DNA from: a virus
Lineage: Duplodnaviria > Heunggongvirae > Uroviricota > Caudoviricetes
Length of the DNA stretch: 43,752 bases
Strand: one strand, 5' to 3'
Virus record (IMG/VR): IMGVR_UViG_2541047807_000012
Of this stretch, positions 35,786-43,752 are shown piece after piece (the stretch's first letter is position 1; each line of letters begins with the position of its first letter). The notes beneath the pieces were generated by a model that saw only the letters and a program-made list of their open reading frames with translations, was not told the origin of the DNA and searched no databases. A program made the translations under genes and the position numbers.

Positions 35786-38700
35786 ATGGGCAAAGGAAGC
35801 AGTAAGGGGCATACCCCGCGCGAAGCGAAGGACAACCTGAAGTCCACGCAACTGCTGAGTGTGATTGATGCCATCAGCGAAGGGCCGATTGAAGGTCCGG
35901 TGGATGGATTAAAAAGCGTGCTGCTGAACAGTACGCCAGTGCTGGACACTGAGGGGAATACCAACATCTCCGGCGTCACGGTGGTGTTCCGGGCCGGTGA
36001 GCAGGAGCAGACACCGCCGGAGGGATTTGAATCCTCCGGCTCCGAGACGGTGCTGGGTACGGAAGTGAAATACGACACGCCGATCACCCGGACCATCACG
36101 TCGGCAAACATTGACCGACTGCGTTTTACCTTCGGCGTGCAGGCACTGGTGGAAACCACCTCAAAGGGGGACCGGAATCCGTCGGAAGTCCGCCTGCTGG
36201 TTCAGATACAGCGTAATGGTGGCTGGGTGACGGAAAAAGACATCACCATTAAGGGCAAAACCACCTCGCAGTACCTGGCCTCGGTGGTGGTGGATAACCT
36301 GCCTCCGCGCCCGTTCAATATCCGGATGCGCAGGATGACACCGGACAGCACTACAGACCAGCTGCAGAACAAAACGCTCTGGTCGTCATACACCGAAATC
36401 ATCGATGTGAAACAGTGCTACCCGAACACGGCACTGGTCGGCGTACAGGTGGACTCGGAGCAGTTCGGCAGCCAGCAGGTGAGCCGTAATTATCATCTTC
36501 GCGGGCGCATTCTGCAGGTGCCGTCGAACTATAACCCGCAGACGCGACAATACAGCGGTATCTGGGACGGAACGTTTAAGCCAGCATACAGCAACAACAT
36601 GGCCTGGTGTCTGTGGGATATGCTGACCCACCCGCGCTACGGCATGGGGAAACGTCTTGGTGCGGCGGATGTGGACAAATGGGCGCTGTATGTCATCGGC
36701 CAGAATTGCGACCAGTCGGTGCCGGACGGCTTTGGCGGCACGGAGCCGCGCATCACCTGTAACGCTTACCTGACCACACAACGTAAGGCGTGGGATGTGC
36801 TCAGTGATTTCTGCTCGGCGATGCGCTGTATGCCGGTATGGAACGGGCAGACGCTGACGTTCGTGCAGGACCGGCTGTCGGATAAGGTGTGGACCTATAA
36901 CCGCAGTAATGTGGTGATGCCGGATGATGGCGCGCCGTTCCGCTACAGCTTCAGCGCCCTGAAGGACCGCCATAATGCCGTTGAGGTGAACTGGATTGAC
37001 CCGGATAACGGCCAGGAGACGGCGACAGAGCTTGTGGAGGACACGCAGGCCATTGCCCGTTACGGTCGTAACGTCACGAAGATGGATGCTTTTGGCTGTA
37101 CCAGCCGGGGGCAGGCACACCGCGCCGGGCTGTGGCTGATTAAAACGGAGCTGCTGGAAACGCAGACCGTGGACTTCAGCGTGGGCGCAGAAGGGCTTCG
37201 CCATGTGCCGGGTGATGTTATTGAAATCTGCGATGATGACTATGCGGGGATCAGCATCGGCGGGCGCGTGCTGGCGGTGAACAGCCAGACCCGGACGCTG
37301 ACGCTCGACCGTGAAATCACGCTGCCATCCTCCGGTACCACGCTGATAAGCCTGGTTGACGGAAGTGGTAATCCGGTCAGCGTGGAGGTTCAGTCCGTCA
37401 CCGACGGACTTAAGGTGAAAGTGAACCGGGTTCCTGACGGCGTTGCAGAATACAGTGTGTGGGGGCTGAAGTTGCCGACGTTGCGTCAGCGCCTGTTCCG
37501 CTGTGTGAGTATCCGTGAGAACGATGACGGCACGTATGCCATCACTGCCGTGCAGCATGTACCGGAGAAAGAAGCCATCGTGGATAACGGGGCGCACTTT
37601 GACGGTGACCAGAGCGGCACGGTGAATGGTGTCACGCCGCCAGCAGTGCAGCACCTGACTGCCGAAGTCACCGCAGACAGCGGGGAGTATCAGGTACTGG
37701 CCCGCTGGGACACGCCGAAGGTGGTGAAGGGCGTGAGTTTCATGCTTCGCCTGACCGTGGCAGCGGACGATGGCAGTGAGCGGCTGGTCAGCACAGCCCG
37801 GACGACGGAAACCACATACCGCTTCACGCAACTGGCGCTGGGGAACTACAGGCTGACAGTCCGGGCGGTAAATGCGTGGGGGCAGCAGGGCGATCCGGCG
37901 TCGGTATCGTTCCGGATTGCCGCACCGGCAGCACCGTCGAGGATTGAGCTGACGCTGGGCTATTTTCAGATAACCGCCACGCCGCATCTTGCGGTTTATG
38001 ACCCGACGGTACAGTTTGAGTTCTGGTTCTCGGAAAGGCGGATTACCGATATCAGGCAGGTTGAAACCACAGCACGCTATCTTGGCATGGCGCTGTGCTG
38101 GATAGCCGCCAGTATCAATATCAAACCGGGCCATGATTATTACTTTTATATCCGCAGTGTGAACACCGTTGGCAAATCGGCATTCGTGGAGGCTGTTGGT
38201 CAGCCGAGTGATGATGCATCCGGCTATCTGGATTTTTTCAAAGGCGAGATAGGGAAAACCCATCTGGCTCAGGAGCTGTGGACGCAGATTGATAACAGTC
38301 AGCTTGCGTCTGACCTGGCTGAAATCAGGACGTCCATTACAGATGTCAGTAATGAAATCACGCAGACCGTCAATAAGAATCTGGAAGACCAGAGTGCAGC
38401 GATCCAGCAGATACAGAAGGTTCAGGTTGATACAAATAATAACCTGAACAGCATGTGGGCAGTGAAGCTGCAGCAGATGCAGGACGGACGCCTTTATATT
38501 GCGGGTATCGGTGCCGGTATTGAGAACACCCCCGACGGCATGCAGAGTCAGGTGCTGCTGGCGGCGGACCGTGTGGCTTTTATTAACCCGGCGAACGGAA
38601 ACACCACCCCTGCACTGGTCACACAGGGTGGACAGACGTTCATCAATGAGGCGCTGATTAAGTACCTTACAGCTCCCACCATTACCAGCGGCGGCAATCC

Positions 38701-39268
38701 TCCTGTATTTTCCCTGACACCGGACGGGCGGCTGACGGCGAAAAATGCCGATATCAGCGGTAACGTGAATGCGAACTCCGGGACGCTCAACAACGTCACG
38801 ATTAATGAGAACTGTCAGATTAAGGGGAAACTGTCAGCCAATCAGATTGAAGGCGATATTGTCAAAACGGTCAGCAAGTCTTTCCCCCGCACGAACAGTT
38901 ATGCCAGTGGCACCATCACGGTAAGAATCAGTGATGATCAGAAGTTTGACCGGCAGGTCATGATACCTCCAGTGTTATTCCGCGGTGGTAAGCATGAGAA
39001 TTTCAACAGTAATAACCAACAGTCATACTGGTATTCAACCTGCCGGTTAAGAGTGACCCGCAATGGTCAGGAGATTTTTAATCAGTCCACGACGGATGCT
39101 CAGGGCGTATTTTCCTCAGTTATAGATATGCCTGCCGGACAGGGGACGCTGACACTGACATTCACCGTATCTTCATCAGGAGCGAATAACTGGACACCAA
39201 CAACCAGTATCAGCGATCTGCTGGTTGTGGTGATGAAGAAATCAACAGCAGGTATCAGTATCAGCTGA
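35786..39268 (+). CDS. J: Host specificity protein J (central tail fiber / tip attachment)
   Basis: 1160 aa; N-terminal and central regions lambda J-like, including fibronectin III-like repeats; distal C-terminus divergent. Confidence 0.95.
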
Positions 39269-39282
39269 ATTTTATAACCCAG

Positions 39283-39310
39283 AACGGGCGTCAGAAATGA
39301 CGCCTTTTTT
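39283..39310 (+). terminator. Intrinsic terminator after J
   Basis: Hairpin GGCGTCAgaaaTGACGCC followed by TTTTTTATT. Confidence 0.65.
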
Positions 39311-39334
39311 ATTGCAGAAAAGCGAGAGGTAATT

Positions 39335-39934
39335 ATGCGTAAACTTTATGCCGCCATTTTGTCCGCAGCCATTTGTCTGGCCGTATCCGGTGCGCCTGCA
39401 TGGGCGTCTGAACATCAGTCCACGCTGAGCGCGGGGTATCTTCATGCCTCGACGAACGTTCCCGGCAGCGATGATCTGAACGGGATTAACGTGAAATACC
39501 GTTATGAGTTTACGGACACACTGGGGCTGGTGACGTCATTCAGCTATGCAGGAGACAAGAATCGCCAGATTACCCGTTACAGCGATACCCGCTGGCATGA
39601 AGATTCAGTGCGTAACCGCTGGTTCAGCGTGATGGCGGGGCCGTCTGTACGCGTGAATGAATGGTTCAGTGCTTATGCGATGGCGGGTGTGGCTTACAGC
39701 CGTGTTTCGACGTTCTCCGGGGATTATCTCCGCGTAACTGACAACAAGGGGAAAACGCACGATGTGCTGACCGGAAGTGATGACGGTCGCCACAGCGACA
39801 CGTCTCTGGCATGGGGGGCTGGCGTGCAGTTTAACCCGACCGAATCCGTGGCCATTGATATTGCTTATGAAGGTTCCGGCAGTGGTGACTGGCGCACTGA
39901 CGGTTTCATCGTGGGTGTCGGTTATAAATTCTGA
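39335..39934 (+). CDS. lom: Lom-like outer membrane protein (Ail/OmpX family)
   Basis: 199 aa; signal peptide and beta-barrel pattern ending in the aromatic residue F; lambda Lom-like position after J. Confidence 0.85.
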
Positions 39935-39960
39935 TTAGCCAGGTAACACAGTGTTATGAC

Positions 39961-39988
39961 AGCCCGCCGGTTCAGGCGGGCTTTTTTG
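39961..39988 (+). terminator. Intrinsic terminator after lom
   Basis: Hairpin AGCCCGCCggttcaGGCGGGCT followed by TTTTTTG. Confidence 0.65.
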
Positions 39989-39992
39989 TGGA

Positions 39993-41741
39993 GTGGATAT
40001 GGCAGCAGTAAAAATCTCAGGTGTGCTGAAAGATGGTGCGGGAAAACCAATACAGAACTGCACTATTCAACTGAAGGCAAAGCGTAACAGCACCACGGTA
40101 CTGGTCAACACAGTGGCCTCTGAAAATCCGGATGAAGCCGGGCGTTACAGCATGGATGTTGAGTATGGACAGTACAGCGTCACCCTGCTGGTTGAAGGTT
40201 TTCCGCCTTCACATGCCGGGACCATTACCGTCTATGAAGGTTCCAGTCCGGGGACGCTGAATGATTTTCTCGGTGCCATGACGGAAGATGATGTCATGCC
40301 GGAGGCATTGCGCCGTTTTCAGGAAATGGTGGAAGAAGCGGCACGCAACGCTGAAGCCGCCTCTCAGAGCGCAGCGGCGGCAAAGAAATCCGAAACTGCA
40401 GCTGCAACACGTTCGGAAGCGGCTGCAGACCGTGCAGAAGCCGCAGCGGAAGTGACGGCAGAGCCTTATGCGAATATAGTGCCGCCGCTGCCTGATGTGT
40501 GGATACCGTTTAACGATTCACTGGATATGATTACGGGATTTTCGCCATCATATAAAAAGATTGTTATTGGTGACGATGAAATAACAATGCCAGGCGACAA
40601 GATTGTTAAGTTTAAACGTGCTTCAACAGCAACGTATATTAATAAGTCCGGCCAACTCAAGCTTGCTGAAGTTGACGAACCGCGATTTGAGCGCGATGGC
40701 TTATTGATTGAAGGACAGAGGACAAATTATCTGAGGAACTCAAATAAACCAGACTCATGGACTATTCATTCCGCACTGAATAAAACATTTGGCACTGATA
40801 AACAGGGGTTCAATTATGCCACGGTGACACCCACGGAAAGTATAGTGGGAACAACAGGTGGCTATACTGTTCATGGTGTGGTTGCAGCAGACAGATTCCC
40901 GCTGGCAAGTGGTGAATGTTTCACTTTTTCGTGCCGGGTTAAAGGCGCTAAAGCACGATGCAGGTTAAGAGTTTCAGTTATTATTGGTGGAACAGATACC
41001 TTCTCTGCTGACTCTTATCTTGATCTGGATACCCGGATCGCAACAGTAAGCGGTAATACATCCCTTATAACGGCCAAAGCTGAACAACAGGGTGAGTGGA
41101 CTTACTATGAGGCCACTTATACAGCTAATACGGATATTGATACCGTTAACTGTGCTTTTTATATGACAAACAAAATAAGTAATGAGCCATTCTATGATGA
41201 CTCAACATTAACCATGACGACGCCGCAAATTGAACTGGGCAATACGGCATCGTCATTTATTGTAACTACAATGCCAACAACACGCGCAAGTGATGTAGTT
41301 ACTATCCCATCGCAGAATAACCTGTCAACACGGCCTTTTACGGTATTGTGCGAAGTAAGCAGGAACTGGAGTACACCGCCCAATGTTGCTCCAAGGATAT
41401 TTGATGTTGGAGGGCACAGTATTGATGATAATTATTTATCGCTGGGGTTTGTTTCAACAGGAAAGATAAGCGCCAACGTAGGAATGGTTCAGCCACAAAT
41501 TGCCTCAGATGGAGAAAGGTTCATTGTGGGTGTGAGAGCTAAATCTGATTTATCAGTAAATGCAATATGCAATGGTAATTATACAACAAACCTTAATGGT
41601 AAAATATTTGGAATTACAGCAACATCGTACCGGTTTGGTGGGCAGACCGCAACAGGAACGCGTCATTTGTTTGGACACATCAGAAATTTCAGAGTCTGGT
41701 TTAAAGAATTAAATGACAGGCAAATCAAGGAGGCAGTATGA
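39993..41741 (+). CDS. stf: Side tail fiber protein (lambda Stf-like N-terminus, divergent lectin-like C-terminal region)
   Basis: N-terminal ~150 aa match the recalled lambda Stf start (AVKISGVLKDG.GKP.QNCTIQLKA.RNSTTV...). C-terminus ends in a LamG/ConA-like pattern (RFGGQTATGTRHLFGHIRNFRVW). Confidence 0.8.
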   Translation: MDMAAVKISGVLKDGAGKPIQNCTIQLKAKRNSTTVLVNTVASENPDEAGRYSMDVEYGQYSVTLLVEGFPPSHAGTITVYEGSSPGTLNDFLGAMTEDDVMPEALRRFQEMVEEAARNAEAASQSAAAAKKSETAAATRSEAAADRAEAAAEVTAEPYANIVPPLPDVWIPFNDSLDMITGFSPSYKKIVIGDDEITMPGDKIVKFKRASTATYINKSGQLKLAEVDEPRFERDGLLIEGQRTNYLRNSNKPDSWTIHSALNKTFGTDKQGFNYATVTPTESIVGTTGGYTVHGVVAADRFPLASGECFTFSCRVKGAKARCRLRVSVIIGGTDTFSADSYLDLDTRIATVSGNTSLITAKAEQQGEWTYYEATYTANTDIDTVNCAFYMTNKISNEPFYDDSTLTMTTPQIELGNTASSFIVTTMPTTRASDVVTIPSQNNLSTRPFTVLCEVSRNWSTPPNVAPRIFDVGGHSIDDNYLSLGFVSTGKISANVGMVQPQIASDGERFIVGVRAKSDLSVNAICNGNYTTNLNGKIFGITATSYRFGGQTATGTRHLFGHIRNFRVWFKELNDRQIKEAV

Positions 41742-42016
41742 AAGATTTAACTTTGAAATTTCCTGGTAACAGAGAGTTTAAATCCTTCCTGTCATCTCTT
41801 GACTGGGAGGAGGATGAAGACCTCCAGAATAAACTGTTAGTCGATGAAATTGGTTTCACCTACACAGAAACAGGGGTAACAGAAGAGGGAGAACCTGTCT
41901 GTGTCCGGAATGACGGTTATTTTGTCAACATTCGCATTCTTGATGACTTGTTTGATGTTTCTGTATTCTCTGATTATGTCGTGGAGCTGGAAACACCGCT
42001 TCGGGAATGGAGCTGA
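41738..42016 (+). CDS. Small acidic hypothetical protein, translationally coupled to stf
   Basis: 92 aa; ATGA overlap with the stf stop. No Tfa similarity. Confidence 0.45.
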   Translation: MKDLTLKFPGNREFKSFLSSLDWEEDEDLQNKLLVDEIGFTYTETGVTEEGEPVCVRNDGYFVNIRILDDLFDVSVFSDYVVELETPLREWS

Positions 42017-42028
42017 AAGGAGGAAATA

Positions 42029-42322
42029 ATGGATATAAGCCCCTTACTTCATGCACTTTGTGCTGTGGCTGCGCAGATACTGGTTGGTCTTTTTACCGGA
42101 AACTGGGCTTACGGAGCGATAGCCGGTTGTACGTTCTTCATTGCGCGGGAACACACCCAGGCAGAATATCGCTGGATTGAAATGTTCGGGCATGGCAAGC
42201 GAATGAATATGCCGTGGTGGGGCGGTTTTGATCCGCGAGTTTGGGATGTGGCAAGCCTGATAGATTTTGCTGTGCCGGTGGTGGCGTGTCTGCTGGTCTG
42301 GCTGTTGGTTAATCGTGGGTGA
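42029..42322 (+). CDS. Small predicted membrane protein (two hydrophobic segments)
   Basis: 97 aa with a strong AAAGGAGG Shine-Dalgarno; hydrophobic N- and C-terminal segments. Confidence 0.45.
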   Translation: MDISPLLHALCAVAAQILVGLFTGNWAYGAIAGCTFFIAREHTQAEYRWIEMFGHGKRMNMPWWGGFDPRVWDVASLIDFAVPVVACLLVWLLVNRG

Positions 42323-42332
42323 AAAAAGGTGA

Positions 42333-42450
42333 GCTGTATATGCAACGGAGGAAGAAACCCCGTTGCTGGAAGCCTGGAAAAAGTATCGGGTGTTGCTGAA
42401 CCGTGTTGATACGTCAACTGCACAGGATATTGAATGGCCAGCACTGCCGT
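42333..42450 (+). pseudogene. tfa: 3' remnant of a tail fiber assembly gene (tfa)
   Basis: Reads [39 protein letters not shown], matching the recalled conserved lambda Tfa C-terminus; no upstream coding continuity or start. Confidence 0.6.
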
Positions 42451-42548
42451 AGGGTAAAACATATAAATTCTATAATTAGATGTATCTTTCCATTTACGGC
42501 AAGGAAGGGGGCTTGGAAGACGTAAAGCATCTCACACCGAGATTATTT

Positions 42549-43139
42549 TTATATGTCAGGTGTCTGAAGTTTTGCTTTGGCTCTTAAAATGGTTTGCCGC
42601 GAGGTTTTGAATTCCCGGGCAATGGCACTTATACTTACACCTGACTTAATTCGTTCGAATACCACCTGTTTCTGTTCTTCATTTAACACAGGTGGTCGAC
42701 CAAAACGTTTCCCTGCGCCCCGGGCTCTTACTATCCCGGAATGAGTGCGTTCAAGTAAAAGGTCTCGTTCAAATTCAGCGACTGCTGAAATTACTTGCAT
42801 CATCATTTTTCCTGTTGGACTGGTCAGGTCAATGCCCCCCAATGCTAAGCAATGCACTCTGATACCTGTTTCGGTCAGTTGTTCCACTGTTTTCCTGATA
42901 TCCATTGCATTACAACCAAGGCGATCCAGTTTTGTCACAATCAATTGATCACCACATTTCAGGCGAGCAAGCAACCGGTTAAAACCAGGACGCTCACTGG
43001 TTGCTGCTGAGCCGCTAATGTGTTCTTCGATTATTTGCTGAGGTTTGATTTTAAAACCTGCACTTTCGATTTCCCGGCGTTGATTTTCGGTGGTCTGATC
43101 CAGAGTTGATATCCGACAGTAAGCAAAAATTCGAGACAT
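42549..43139 (-). CDS. pin: Serine recombinase (resolvase/invertase family; PinQ/PinR-like)
   Basis: 196 aa; N-terminal catalytic motif ([11 protein letters not shown], Ser nucleophile) and C-terminal HTH. Confidence 0.85.
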
Positions 43140-43518
43140 AGTGAGACTCTATACGAAATTGGTGTACATATCATAATGCATATCCAAAAATTATTTCGCT
43201 TATTATTGCACATATTTGTATGTATACGTTCGAAAATAAACAAATTCGGATGCAGTCCCGTAATTTTGGTGTAACCCAAAATCGATTTTTTGAAAAATGG
43301 CTTTAACTCGGTTTGTTTTTCGAACTCCGGGCGGACTCGAGAAAGACGAATAATAGTGTTGTATGTTGTTTTAGCCAGATTTCAATTTGTTTGGTCTTGG
43401 AAAAGTGAAGCAAAAAGTTGTTAAAGTGGAAAAATGGTAAAAAAGTAGGTTGTTGCGGCATAACGTAGTTGTTGATATTTTTTAATGCATTGAAAAATTA
43501 TTTTTCAGGGGGTGTTTA

Positions 43519-43752
43519 TTACACTTTACCATTTAAATTTTGGTTGTCTTTAAGAACTGATATCGCTGTTTGTAATAATTCTTTGTTATCCAGCCATGAC
43601 TTTTTCTTTATGTTTCCTTCAATGTAATCAAGCAATGTTCTGGTATTGATAGGTCTTCCCTGTTTTGCCACTTCCACGACAGCATCTCCCAGGATAATTC
43701 TGACTTCAGGAAGCTGCGCGGGGAACCACTTTAGGGTGTCTTTTGATTTCAT
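43519..43752 (-). CDS. YdfK/YnaE-like small prophage protein (start codon at window edge)
   Basis: 77 aa ORF whose ATG is the last three bases of the window; gene order after pin matches Qin/Rac. Confidence 0.55.
   Translation of the reverse strand: MKSKDTLKWFPAQLPEVRIILGDAVVEVAKQGRPINTRTLLDYIEGNIKKKSWLDNKELLQTAISVLKDNQNLNGKV

Follow-up and report, generated by a model that had tools for sequence, protein, structure and literature searches.

The DNA analysed here, which we call the window, is the whole 43,752-nucleotide stretch of the IMG/VR virus record IMGVR_UViG_2541047807_000012 (Duplodnaviria; Heunggongvirae; Uroviricota; Caudoviricetes), and the subject of this report is the side tail fibre (stf) locus near its right end. 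The window is a complete-looking lambdoid prophage, with early genes, a lysis region, and terminase, portal, tape measure and J genes. Near its right end lies lom (39335-39934; PF06316, E 2e-120), after which come a terminator-like hairpin, stf, a gene for a 92-amino-acid (aa) protein (orf92), a gene for a 97-aa protein (orf97) and a 3' remnant, or stub, of the tail fibre assembly gene tfa; a pin-type invertase gene and a ydfK-like gene follow on the opposite strand. We think it rather probable that this locus is a common, modular side-tail-fibre host-range cassette in which a lectin-like fibre tip is combined with a partner gene, orf92, a mobile gene, orf97, and a dead tfa stub. The features of the cassette, and then the two that flank it, are as follows.

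39999..41741, + strand: stf, the side tail fibre gene (the list of open reading frames (ORFs) starts it at GTG 39993, giving 582 aa; the probable start is ATG 39999).
40005..40394, + strand: lambda-type Stf N-terminal (tail-attachment) domain (PF08400; 83% DNA identity to lambda up to 40351).
40352..40448, + strand: shortened Ala-rich shaft, and left breakpoint of the cassette relative to lambda (lambda homology ends at 40351).
40449..40703, + strand: conserved adaptor segment of the distal module (motif PDVWxPxxD ... ATYIxKSGxL ... EPRFE ... GLLxEGxxTN).
40704..41288, + strand: variable beta-sandwich domain related to the head spike fibre of the Rhodobacter capsulatus gene transfer agent, RcGTA (NF048003; matches of the A5 profile, described below).
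41289..41738, + strand: C-terminal lectin domain resembling concanavalin A (ConA) and laminin G (LamG) domains, ending in a conserved HIRNFRxW...L..Q motif.
41738..42016, + strand: orf92, encoding an acidic 92-aa protein of PHROG 1361 (its ATG overlaps the stf TGA as ATGA).
42029..42322, + strand: orf97, encoding a small membrane protein of PHROG 1443 (an AAGGAGG ribosome-binding site lies in the gap before its ATG).
42333..42452, + strand: tfa 3' remnant (pseudogene) and putative right homology arm of the cassette (PF02413 match, no start codon).
39961..39982, + strand: intrinsic-terminator-like hairpin between lom and stf (8-bp stem with 7 GC pairs, then a T-run).
42549..43139, - strand: orphan pin-type serine DNA invertase, given as context and not as part of the function of the cassette (PF00239 and HTH_7; pinR or pinQ in relatives).

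The ATG of stf at 39999 is preceded by GGAG at 39990-39993, and RefSeq uses the same start in E. coli B. Residues 5-134 of the product match the prophage tail fibre N-terminal family PF08400 (E 3.7e-66; 221.7 bits against a cut-off of 26.6), and this score above the gathering threshold, together with the position of the gene after J and lom in synteny with lambda and phage 21, identifies it as a lambda-type side tail fibre. DNA similarity to lambda extends from the end of lom to 40351 (83%), at about codon 120 of stf, is then absent for 1989 bp and returns at 42341-42442. A previous reading of this DNA, made from the letters alone and called the sequence-only reading below, had described a lambda-like Stf N-terminus joined to about 400 different C-terminal aa as a swap of the host-range module. 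Alignment to lambda stf-tfa shows that the swap is real and that the N-terminal and distal parts were correctly told apart; the extent needs revision, as the non-lambda part comes to about 460 aa, of which about 430 aa make up the distal module. These C-terminal 430 or so aa are 97-99% identical to the 673/674-aa allele of E. coli B. Relative to that allele, as it stands in REL606 and Lambda_2E9, and to phage 21, the Ala/Ser-rich shaft of the window Stf lacks 92 codons, a 276-bp in-frame deletion with a 6-bp overlap at 40401-40406. Proteins of 581/582 aa whose tips are 99-100% identical are present in other E. coli (one of them flagged as partial), consistent with the same short allele.

The distal module begins with the adaptor segment, which has invariant columns in A5, an alignment that compares 16 fibres of lambdoid, T5-like and metagenomic phages, and a mean pairwise identity of 67% among 50 non-redundant fibres. 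Behind it, Stf residues 238-432 pass the NCBIfam model NF048003 (GTA_spike_fiber) with E 5.3e-18 and 66.2 bits against a cut-off of 36. When the profile of the 16 diverse tips in A5 was compared with PDB sequences it matched RcGTA Rcc01080 (GhsB; 6tb9_F3) at E 1e-30; this match is one of sequence and not of a seen fold, since the deposited structures resolve only residues 2-10 (within the first ten residues), and it stops at position 275 of 432. The same profile matches tail fibre gp17 (9occ_C; E 3.6e-12) and, at about E 3-4e-10, gp46 (baseplate wedge 2) and gp45 (triplex), and CBM_4_9 is also among the Pfam matches of the tip. Rcc01080 and the window Stf thus share a homologous central beta-sandwich, and Rcc01080 binds capsular polysaccharide; it differs in being a single chain placed on capsid pentons without a fibre shaft. 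The RcGTA head fibre has been described as a single subunit per spike that binds capsule (PMC7296036; PMC10218006). The tip core of the window is only about 29-30% identical to that of phage 21, with 40730-41629 unalignable as DNA, and the variable beta-sandwich is probably the main specificity determinant.

The end of Stf (residues 433-579) gave an end-to-end, sub-threshold match to Laminin_G_3 (PF13385; profile positions 4-151 of 151), scoring 19.5 bits against a gathering threshold of 27.6 (E 1.2e-3), which places it outside that family as Pfam draws it. A single-sequence search of the PDB with the Stf tip found no match. A profile of the last 165 aa (A7), in turn, matched the lectin domain of pneumococcal NanA (4c1w; E 3.6e-5, positions 21-158 of 161) and, more weakly, botulinum neurotoxin chains and C-reactive protein (E 0.13-0.4), all of which we take to be ConA-like jelly-roll folds. 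Judged by these profile matches, the Stf C-terminus belongs at fold level to the concanavalin A-like lectin/glucanase superfamily. The LamG/ConA-like pattern noticed in the sequence-only reading therefore holds at the level of the superfamily, given the 4c1w match and a 43%-identical homologue whose end has been called galectin-like. The tip probably consists of globular lectin heads, one per chain, on a coiled-coil shaft, rather than of an intertwined trimeric needle; such a tip plausibly would not need a Tfa chaperone, and this would explain how tfa was lost.

The homologue just mentioned is Gp22 of the T5-like phage IrisVonRoten (Bas32), whose distal module is 43% identical to Stf 121-582 and whose gene is followed, with an overlapping start, by that of Gp23, a 92-aa homologue of the orf92 product (47% identity). 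IrisVonRoten differs from the window in its T5-type N-terminal anchor, in the T-shaped second fibre Gp24 that comes next, and in having neither orf97 nor a tfa stub. In an AlphaFold-Multimer model Gp22 is a proximal fibre with a protruding galectin-like C-terminal domain, perhaps an extra receptor-binding domain (PMC11990801).

We examined the genomic context of orf92 in a sample of 80 IMG/VR loci that carry distant relatives (26-45% identical to the window orf92), found with a sub-alignment. The adaptor segment of the tip module lies immediately upstream of orf92 in 77 of the 80; of the three exceptions, locus L022 is one, and in the other two the sequence on the upstream side is too short. 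The orf92 start overlaps the upstream stop codon in 77 of the 80 loci as well, as TAATG or TGATG in 68 and as ATGA in 9. By this linkage and this overlap, orf92 is a strictly linked, translationally coupled and dedicated partner of the tip type across lambdoid, T5-like, Mu-like and uncultured phages. What lies 3' of orf92, on the other hand, varies. The next gene may encode a baseplate hub resembling Mu GpP, a short fibre that carries a Peptidase_S74 chaperone domain, a gp53-like fibre accompanied by a full-length tfa, or, in IrisVonRoten, the T-shaped fibre. One metagenomic phage (L027, 6294-7438) has the order tip fibre, orf92, gp53-like fibre and full-length Tfa, which may resemble the ancestral arrangement. 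Two Escherichia variants have a further fibre gene between orf92 and orf97: one of 346 aa (PHROG 4563) in Escherichia ruysiae (L093, 3918-4958), where the tfa stub still stands at the end, and one of 234 aa in an Escherichia sp. (L094, 4286-4990), where no stub was detected.

The orf92 product itself has an isoelectric point of 4.05, and the gene is under purifying selection, with a ratio of nonsynonymous to synonymous substitution rates (dN/dS) of 0.27-0.41; the sequence-only description of a translationally coupled, acidic ORF of 92 aa was thus accurate. Modelled alone with AlphaFold2 (AF2), it is an alpha/beta protein with a predicted local distance difference test score (pLDDT) of 90 and no match of known function: a profile search of the PDB gave chance-level matches only, and a fold search of BFVD found only uncharacterised phage proteins. 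The protein has no match in Pfam, NCBIfam or PADLOC, and in PHROGs both small genes match only families of unknown function (1361/18574 for orf92 and 1443/34165 for orf97). Comparison of orf92 with lambda Tfa by hhalign gave a probability of 0.05%, and neither orf92 nor orf97 matches PF02413 (Caudo_TAP). The orf92 family is small: 45 word-indexed matches were found, none of them outside Escherichia and Shigella, and a profile search of 1.84 billion proteins gave 77 representatives. The same orf92 allele (93% identical between the window and phage 21) accompanies binding cores that are only about 30% identical, so its role would involve the conserved parts of the tip.

From the genomic linkage and the start-stop overlap, orf92 is probably a dedicated tip assembly or accessory protein; we rate a part in chaperoning or assembly slightly above one as a structural adaptor. 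Being synthesised together with Stf, the protein probably helps to fold or assemble the tip, or remains bound to the conserved parts of it. The fibres of DT57C have intramolecular chaperone domains, a different solution from orf92. The idea, raised from the sequence alone, that orf92 is a non-canonical fibre chaperone stands as far as the fibre partnership is concerned (near-obligate linkage, coupling and no similarity to Tfa), with that of a chaperone as its putative role. Three observations weigh against this picture of orf92. In a Chelativorans sp. prophage (L114, 3526-5285) the gene for a fibre of the PHROG 5939/1419 type overlaps by 4 nt an orf97 homologue that comes directly after it, and orf92 is not detectable, an exception to the pairing of orf92 with the tip from which it follows that orf92 may not be universally required. 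A second fibre gene comes after orf92 in many loci, which makes an adaptor role as plausible as a chaperone role. Finally, the identity of orf92 correlates with that of the C-terminal end of the fibre (rho 0.61), and proximity or linkage alone could explain this.

Taken further, the adaptor idea would make orf92 a structural adaptor or hinge at the lectin-tipped end of a proximal fibre, where it would dock a second, distal fibre that window-type copies of the cassette have since lost. The 574-aa T-shaped fibre after orf92 in IrisVonRoten, which has been proposed to attach to the Gp22 proximal fibre (PMC11990801), agrees with this, as do the 332-aa fibres with a Peptidase_S74 chaperone domain that follow orf92 in many IMG/VR loci, the gp53-like fibre and full tfa of L027 and the two fibre genes of the Escherichia variants; the annotators of IrisVonRoten also call its 92-aa product a 'tail fiber protein'. 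However, orf92 has been kept under purifying selection where there is no second fibre, as in the window, phage 21 and Lambda_2E9, Mu-like loci without a second fibre keep it with the baseplate hub gene next in line, and no structural similarity to known fibre connectors was found. We therefore regard a docking adaptor as possible, and on balance unlikely, and retain the tip assembly or accessory protein as our working view of orf92.

The second small gene, orf97, is separate, independently mobile and widely distributed; phages that carry it have it as the final gene of their receptor-binding-protein operon, regardless of the kind of fibre or spike. Its family has 568 homologues, and its loci come from gamma-, beta- and alpha-proteobacteria and Desulfovibrio (Escherichia, Leclercia, Aeromonas, Comamonas, Sphingomonas, Chelativorans and Desulfovibrio). 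It was found in 1 of the 80 orf92 loci, and orf92 was detectable in 4 of 70 orf97 loci. The phages that carry it are sipho-, myo- and podoviruses with unrelated fibres and tailspikes. The homologue lies after the tail fibre assembly gene in the myovirus phiHAP-1, where its start overlaps the upstream late gene, after tailspikes or fibres in Leclercia and Desulfovibrio, after the PHROG 5939-type fibre in Chelativorans, and in Comamonas downstream of a 2520-aa J-like protein in which no tip module was found; the 72-aa ORF that intervenes in Comamonas was considered and rejected as a relative of orf92. In the P22-like phage JEP4 the homologue lies between the tailspike gene, which its start overlaps, and int. 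That position behind a P22-like tailspike is the usual place of O-antigen conversion genes such as gtrABC and oac.

AF2 predicts three helices in the orf97 product (residues 4-23, 26-53 and 74-96; pLDDT 90.6), so the two-segment membrane protein of the sequence-only reading was right as to the membrane and wrong as to the number of segments. Its core, AREHTQAEYRWI...MPWWGGFD, is invariant or nearly so. The fold search was uninformative, the profile search found no PDB relative, and a search for exclusion or defence families gave no PADLOC match for orf92 or orf97, and in PHROGs only families of unknown function. A holin reading was also considered and found no support; the genes after orf97 in Comamonas gave no lysis-gene matches. 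Two homologues lie outside prophages. One, in Sphingomonas arvum (L154, 2933-5270), is 1 nt after ligA in a non-prophage chromosomal context, and the other, in Aeromonas rivipollensis (L006, 8001-8309), stands alone on the chromosome, flanked by genes for pirin and RIO1 kinase and not far from lipid A acyltransferase genes. These chromosomal homologues hint at a cellular origin or function of the family.

Over 39300-43300 a consensus scan found 8 promoter-like sites where 6.1 were expected by chance, with no + strand site in 40817-42607 and no terminator after orf97. Since a terminator-like hairpin stands upstream and no promoter-like site exceeds chance, stf, orf92 and orf97 are probably read only by the antiterminated late transcript. 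We propose that orf97 is co-transcribed late with stf and probably acts at the inner membrane, where its most likely roles would be to block superinfection or DNA entry, or to alter envelope glycans; this is the weakest step of the proposed mechanism. A precedent is HK97 gp15, a small inner-membrane superinfection-exclusion moron with chromosomal YebO homologues (PMC3594210). Like gp15, orf97 encodes a small membrane protein among tail genes and belongs to a family with non-prophage chromosomal members; unlike gp15, it lacks its own promoter and terminator, shows much stronger conservation and has a broader taxonomic range, and it is not known to be related to gp15 in sequence or to exclude phages. 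On the strength of the gp15 precedent and of the O-antigen conversion slot, an exclusion or envelope-modifying role is our best guess for orf97, and one that we hold with low confidence.

Several points tell against even this guess. As the consensus scan gave it neither promoter nor terminator, orf97 does not count as a classical moron expressed from the prophage. A core that hardly varies from one proteobacterial class to another, together with chromosomal copies next to housekeeping genes, would be less expected of a fast-evolving exclusion factor than of a gene with a conserved cellular function. The membrane immunity or superinfection-exclusion factor suggested in the sequence-only reading accordingly finds no direct support, since orf97 is independent of fibre type and lacks, besides those signals, any match in PADLOC or to a PHROG of assigned function. 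In a different explanation, orf97 would be a lysogenic-conversion or host-fitness gene of cellular origin, unrelated to phage entry (modulating an envelope biosynthetic enzyme, for example), that simply rides in a permissive slot after receptor-binding genes. The stand-alone homologues beside pirin and RIO1 kinase in Aeromonas and beside ligA in Sphingomonas, the conserved core and the position between tailspike and int in JEP4 are all in keeping with it. Set against these are the want of an above-chance promoter-like site upstream, the terminator ahead of stf and the orf97 starts that overlap the upstream late gene in JEP4 and phiHAP-1, all of which argue for late lytic expression, and the lack of any enzyme-like fold or family match. 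A host-fitness gene of this kind is in our view a doubtful, if real, possibility beside the late exclusion or envelope-modifying role that we prefer for orf97.

How the cassette moves can be approached through its mosaic relation to phage 21: the adaptor is 78% identical, 40730-41629 cannot be aligned, and 41630-42398, from the end of stf through orf92 and orf97 to the start of the stub, is 94% identical. Lambda has been shown experimentally to recombine with the Rac and Qin prophages within stf and tfa homologies, and one third of the Rac recombinants had crossed over in a 95%-identical tfa segment (PMC3945230). The flanking stf 5' and tfa 3' homologies are thus documented recombination substrates, in agreement with the cassette exchange that the sequence-only reading had supposed, and the architecture of the window (conserved in the left arm, variable in the core, and conserved again in the right block, which ends with the stub) fits the mechanism seen between lambda and Rac or Qin. 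We suggest that the cassette would spread by homologous recombination, in which the left arm would be the conserved stf 5' region or the adaptor segment of the tip, the right arm would be the conserved block of stf end, orf92, orf97 and tfa stub, and the variable core would be exchanged between the two.

A pin-family invertase on the opposite strand only 100 bp downstream raises the thought of a Pin-mediated invertible host-range switch, as in the Mu G, P1 C and e14 P segments, with the tfa fragment as part of an alternative tip set. An invertible tail-fibre segment of the Gin/Cin/Pin kind was rejected and is very improbable: the invertase is present, but the minus strand holds no inverted alternative tip or tfa, the best inverted repeat is 25 nt at 76%, below the quality of a crossover site, no AAACCNNGGTTT core lies within the locus, and in E. 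coli B and many other genomes stub and pin are fixed in a single orientation with respect to the cassette. The invertase is an orphan here, as it is at the ends of the Rac and Qin prophages.

The tfa stub follows an in-frame TGA (42330-42332) and consists of 39 sense codons (42333-42449) closed by a TAG (42450-42452). Its frame has no ATG or GTG, and TTG occurs in it only where the Tfa motif has its conserved Leu-Leu. The stub matches positions 95-130 of the 131 in PF02413 (36 positions; E 4.8e-16), and over 42341-42442 its DNA shares 92% identity with the final 102 bp of lambda tfa, far beyond chance. The startless fragment of about 35 codons of the Tfa C-terminus that the sequence-only reading had picked out is therefore genuine, with about 36 of its 39 sense codons matching Tfa. 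RefSeq annotates the stub as a pseudogene in REL606 ('incomplete; missing N-terminus') and as 'tail fiber assembly protein' in other genomes listed. Neither orf92, orf97 nor the stub is an intact ORF downstream of a fibre with a full-length match to Tfa (Caudo_TAP). A 19-codon ORF with an ATG (42340-42399, + strand), in another frame across the start of the stub, is probably meaningless. That the fragment, although open for 39 codons and well conserved, is an intact gene with an unrecognised start, or that orf92 or orf97 is a divergent Tfa chaperone, is scarcely credible in view of the TGA at 42330, the frame without ATG or GTG, the match confined to the last 36 of 131 Pfam positions, the missing N-terminus flagged by RefSeq, the second truncation of the stub in phage 21 and Lambda_2E9 (below), and the hhalign and Caudo_TAP results given above for the small genes.

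In an alignment of four carriers, namely the window, REL606 (E. coli B), phage 21 and Lambda_2E9, the stub has the same left junction in each, so the scar would be a single old event that now travels with the cassette. A recombination scar at the tfa 3' end, as first proposed, thus survives in the remnant and its flanking homologies, and fails as a recent local event. In the free phages 21 (L002, 5731-8715) and Lambda_2E9 (L004, 5692-8676) an inverted sitABCD operon, for an iron/manganese transporter, interrupts the stub about 65 bp in and so forms a second breakpoint inside it. The gene orders of L027, with a second fibre and a full tfa, and of L093, with a second fibre, orf97 and the stub, suggest that an ancestral tfa served a second fibre, later lost or replaced.

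The cassette is common. At least 80% of 39993-42600 is present in 513 of 5426 complete E. coli genomes, and the 131-bp junction from orf97 to the stub in 1739 of the 5426 (about a third), E. coli B included; among deposited phage genomes, 12 span 80% or more of the region, with phage 21 as a version with a divergent core. Both small genes are hypothetical proteins in RefSeq. The sequence-only reading had called them novel, which they are not: they belong to the known families PHROG 1361 and 1443 and occur in phage 21, E. coli B and hundreds to thousands of genomes. With lambda stf-tfa and with the stfR-tfaR-pinR type loci of Rac and Qin the window shares the position after J and lom, the PF08400 anchor, the Ala-rich type of shaft and the tfa 3' end (92% DNA identity), behind which come the orphan pin invertase and then ydfK. 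It differs from lambda stf-tfa in the distal 460 or so aa of Stf, which are unrelated, and in having only a 39-codon stub of tfa, with two unrelated small genes in its place. Phage 21 (CPT_21_22/23/24) and the Rac remnant of REL606 (ECB_RS07130-07145) have the same order of stf, orf92, orf97 and stub and the same stub junction, with orf92 91-98% and orf97 about 98% identical to the window. The differences are the 92 shaft residues missing from the window Stf and, in phage 21, another core (about 30%) and the stub cut by sitABCD.

Two observations concern the surroundings of the locus. The J gene (35786-39268) is 94% identical to lambda J up to 38282, 72% over 38452-38826 and unalignable beyond, and its 3' region (38283-39268) is 91% identical to phage 21 J; on these identities the receptor-binding end of the central fibre is also non-lambda and phage 21-like. 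At the window edge, which cuts it, the product of an ORF on the - strand (43519-43752; 77 aa in the ORF list) matches YdfK, annotated as a cold-shock protein, at the Rac end of E. coli B, which suggests that the prophage either lies at a Rac/Qin-type locus or has a right end in common with one.

As a genomic feature the locus is ordinary, in that its sequence is already in databases and the scar already annotated as a pseudogene. In the literature searched we did not find the near-obligate pairing of orf92 with the lectin tip across phage families, the recurrent position of orf97 after a receptor-binding gene or a mapping of the exchange points, and work on DT57C LtfA/LtfB, BF23, the BASEL collection, the phage 21 genome and Eligo chimeras, along with superinfection-exclusion reviews, yielded no functional study of orf92 or orf97. 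A bolder, tentative reading, which we think improbable as a whole, is that orf92 founds a class of tail-fibre accessory proteins unrelated to Tfa, gp38, gp57A and intramolecular chaperones and specific for tips of the GTA-spike-fibre plus LamG type in sipho- and myoviruses, and that orf97 is a conserved late inner-membrane factor, placed after receptor-binding genes, that acts on the envelope or on DNA entry. If this were true, orf97 might, for example, stop progeny from wasting injection or competitors from achieving it.

The range of surface glycans open to a lambdoid phage depends on its side tail fibres. For targeted delivery vectors, chimeric Stf proteins are being engineered (PMC11338833). 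The tip type described here is among the commonest in E. coli prophages and appears to need orf92 rather than Tfa; if that is true, transplanting such tips would require moving orf92 along with them. The conserved flanks, stf 5' and adaptor on one side and the stf end, orf92, orf97 and stub on the other, are natural exchange points for the variable core. The locus is a known kind of mosaic that carries two uncharacterised accessory families, and orf97, as a conserved family of small membrane proteins found after receptor-binding genes in unrelated phages, is a candidate for a new exclusion or envelope-modifying function.

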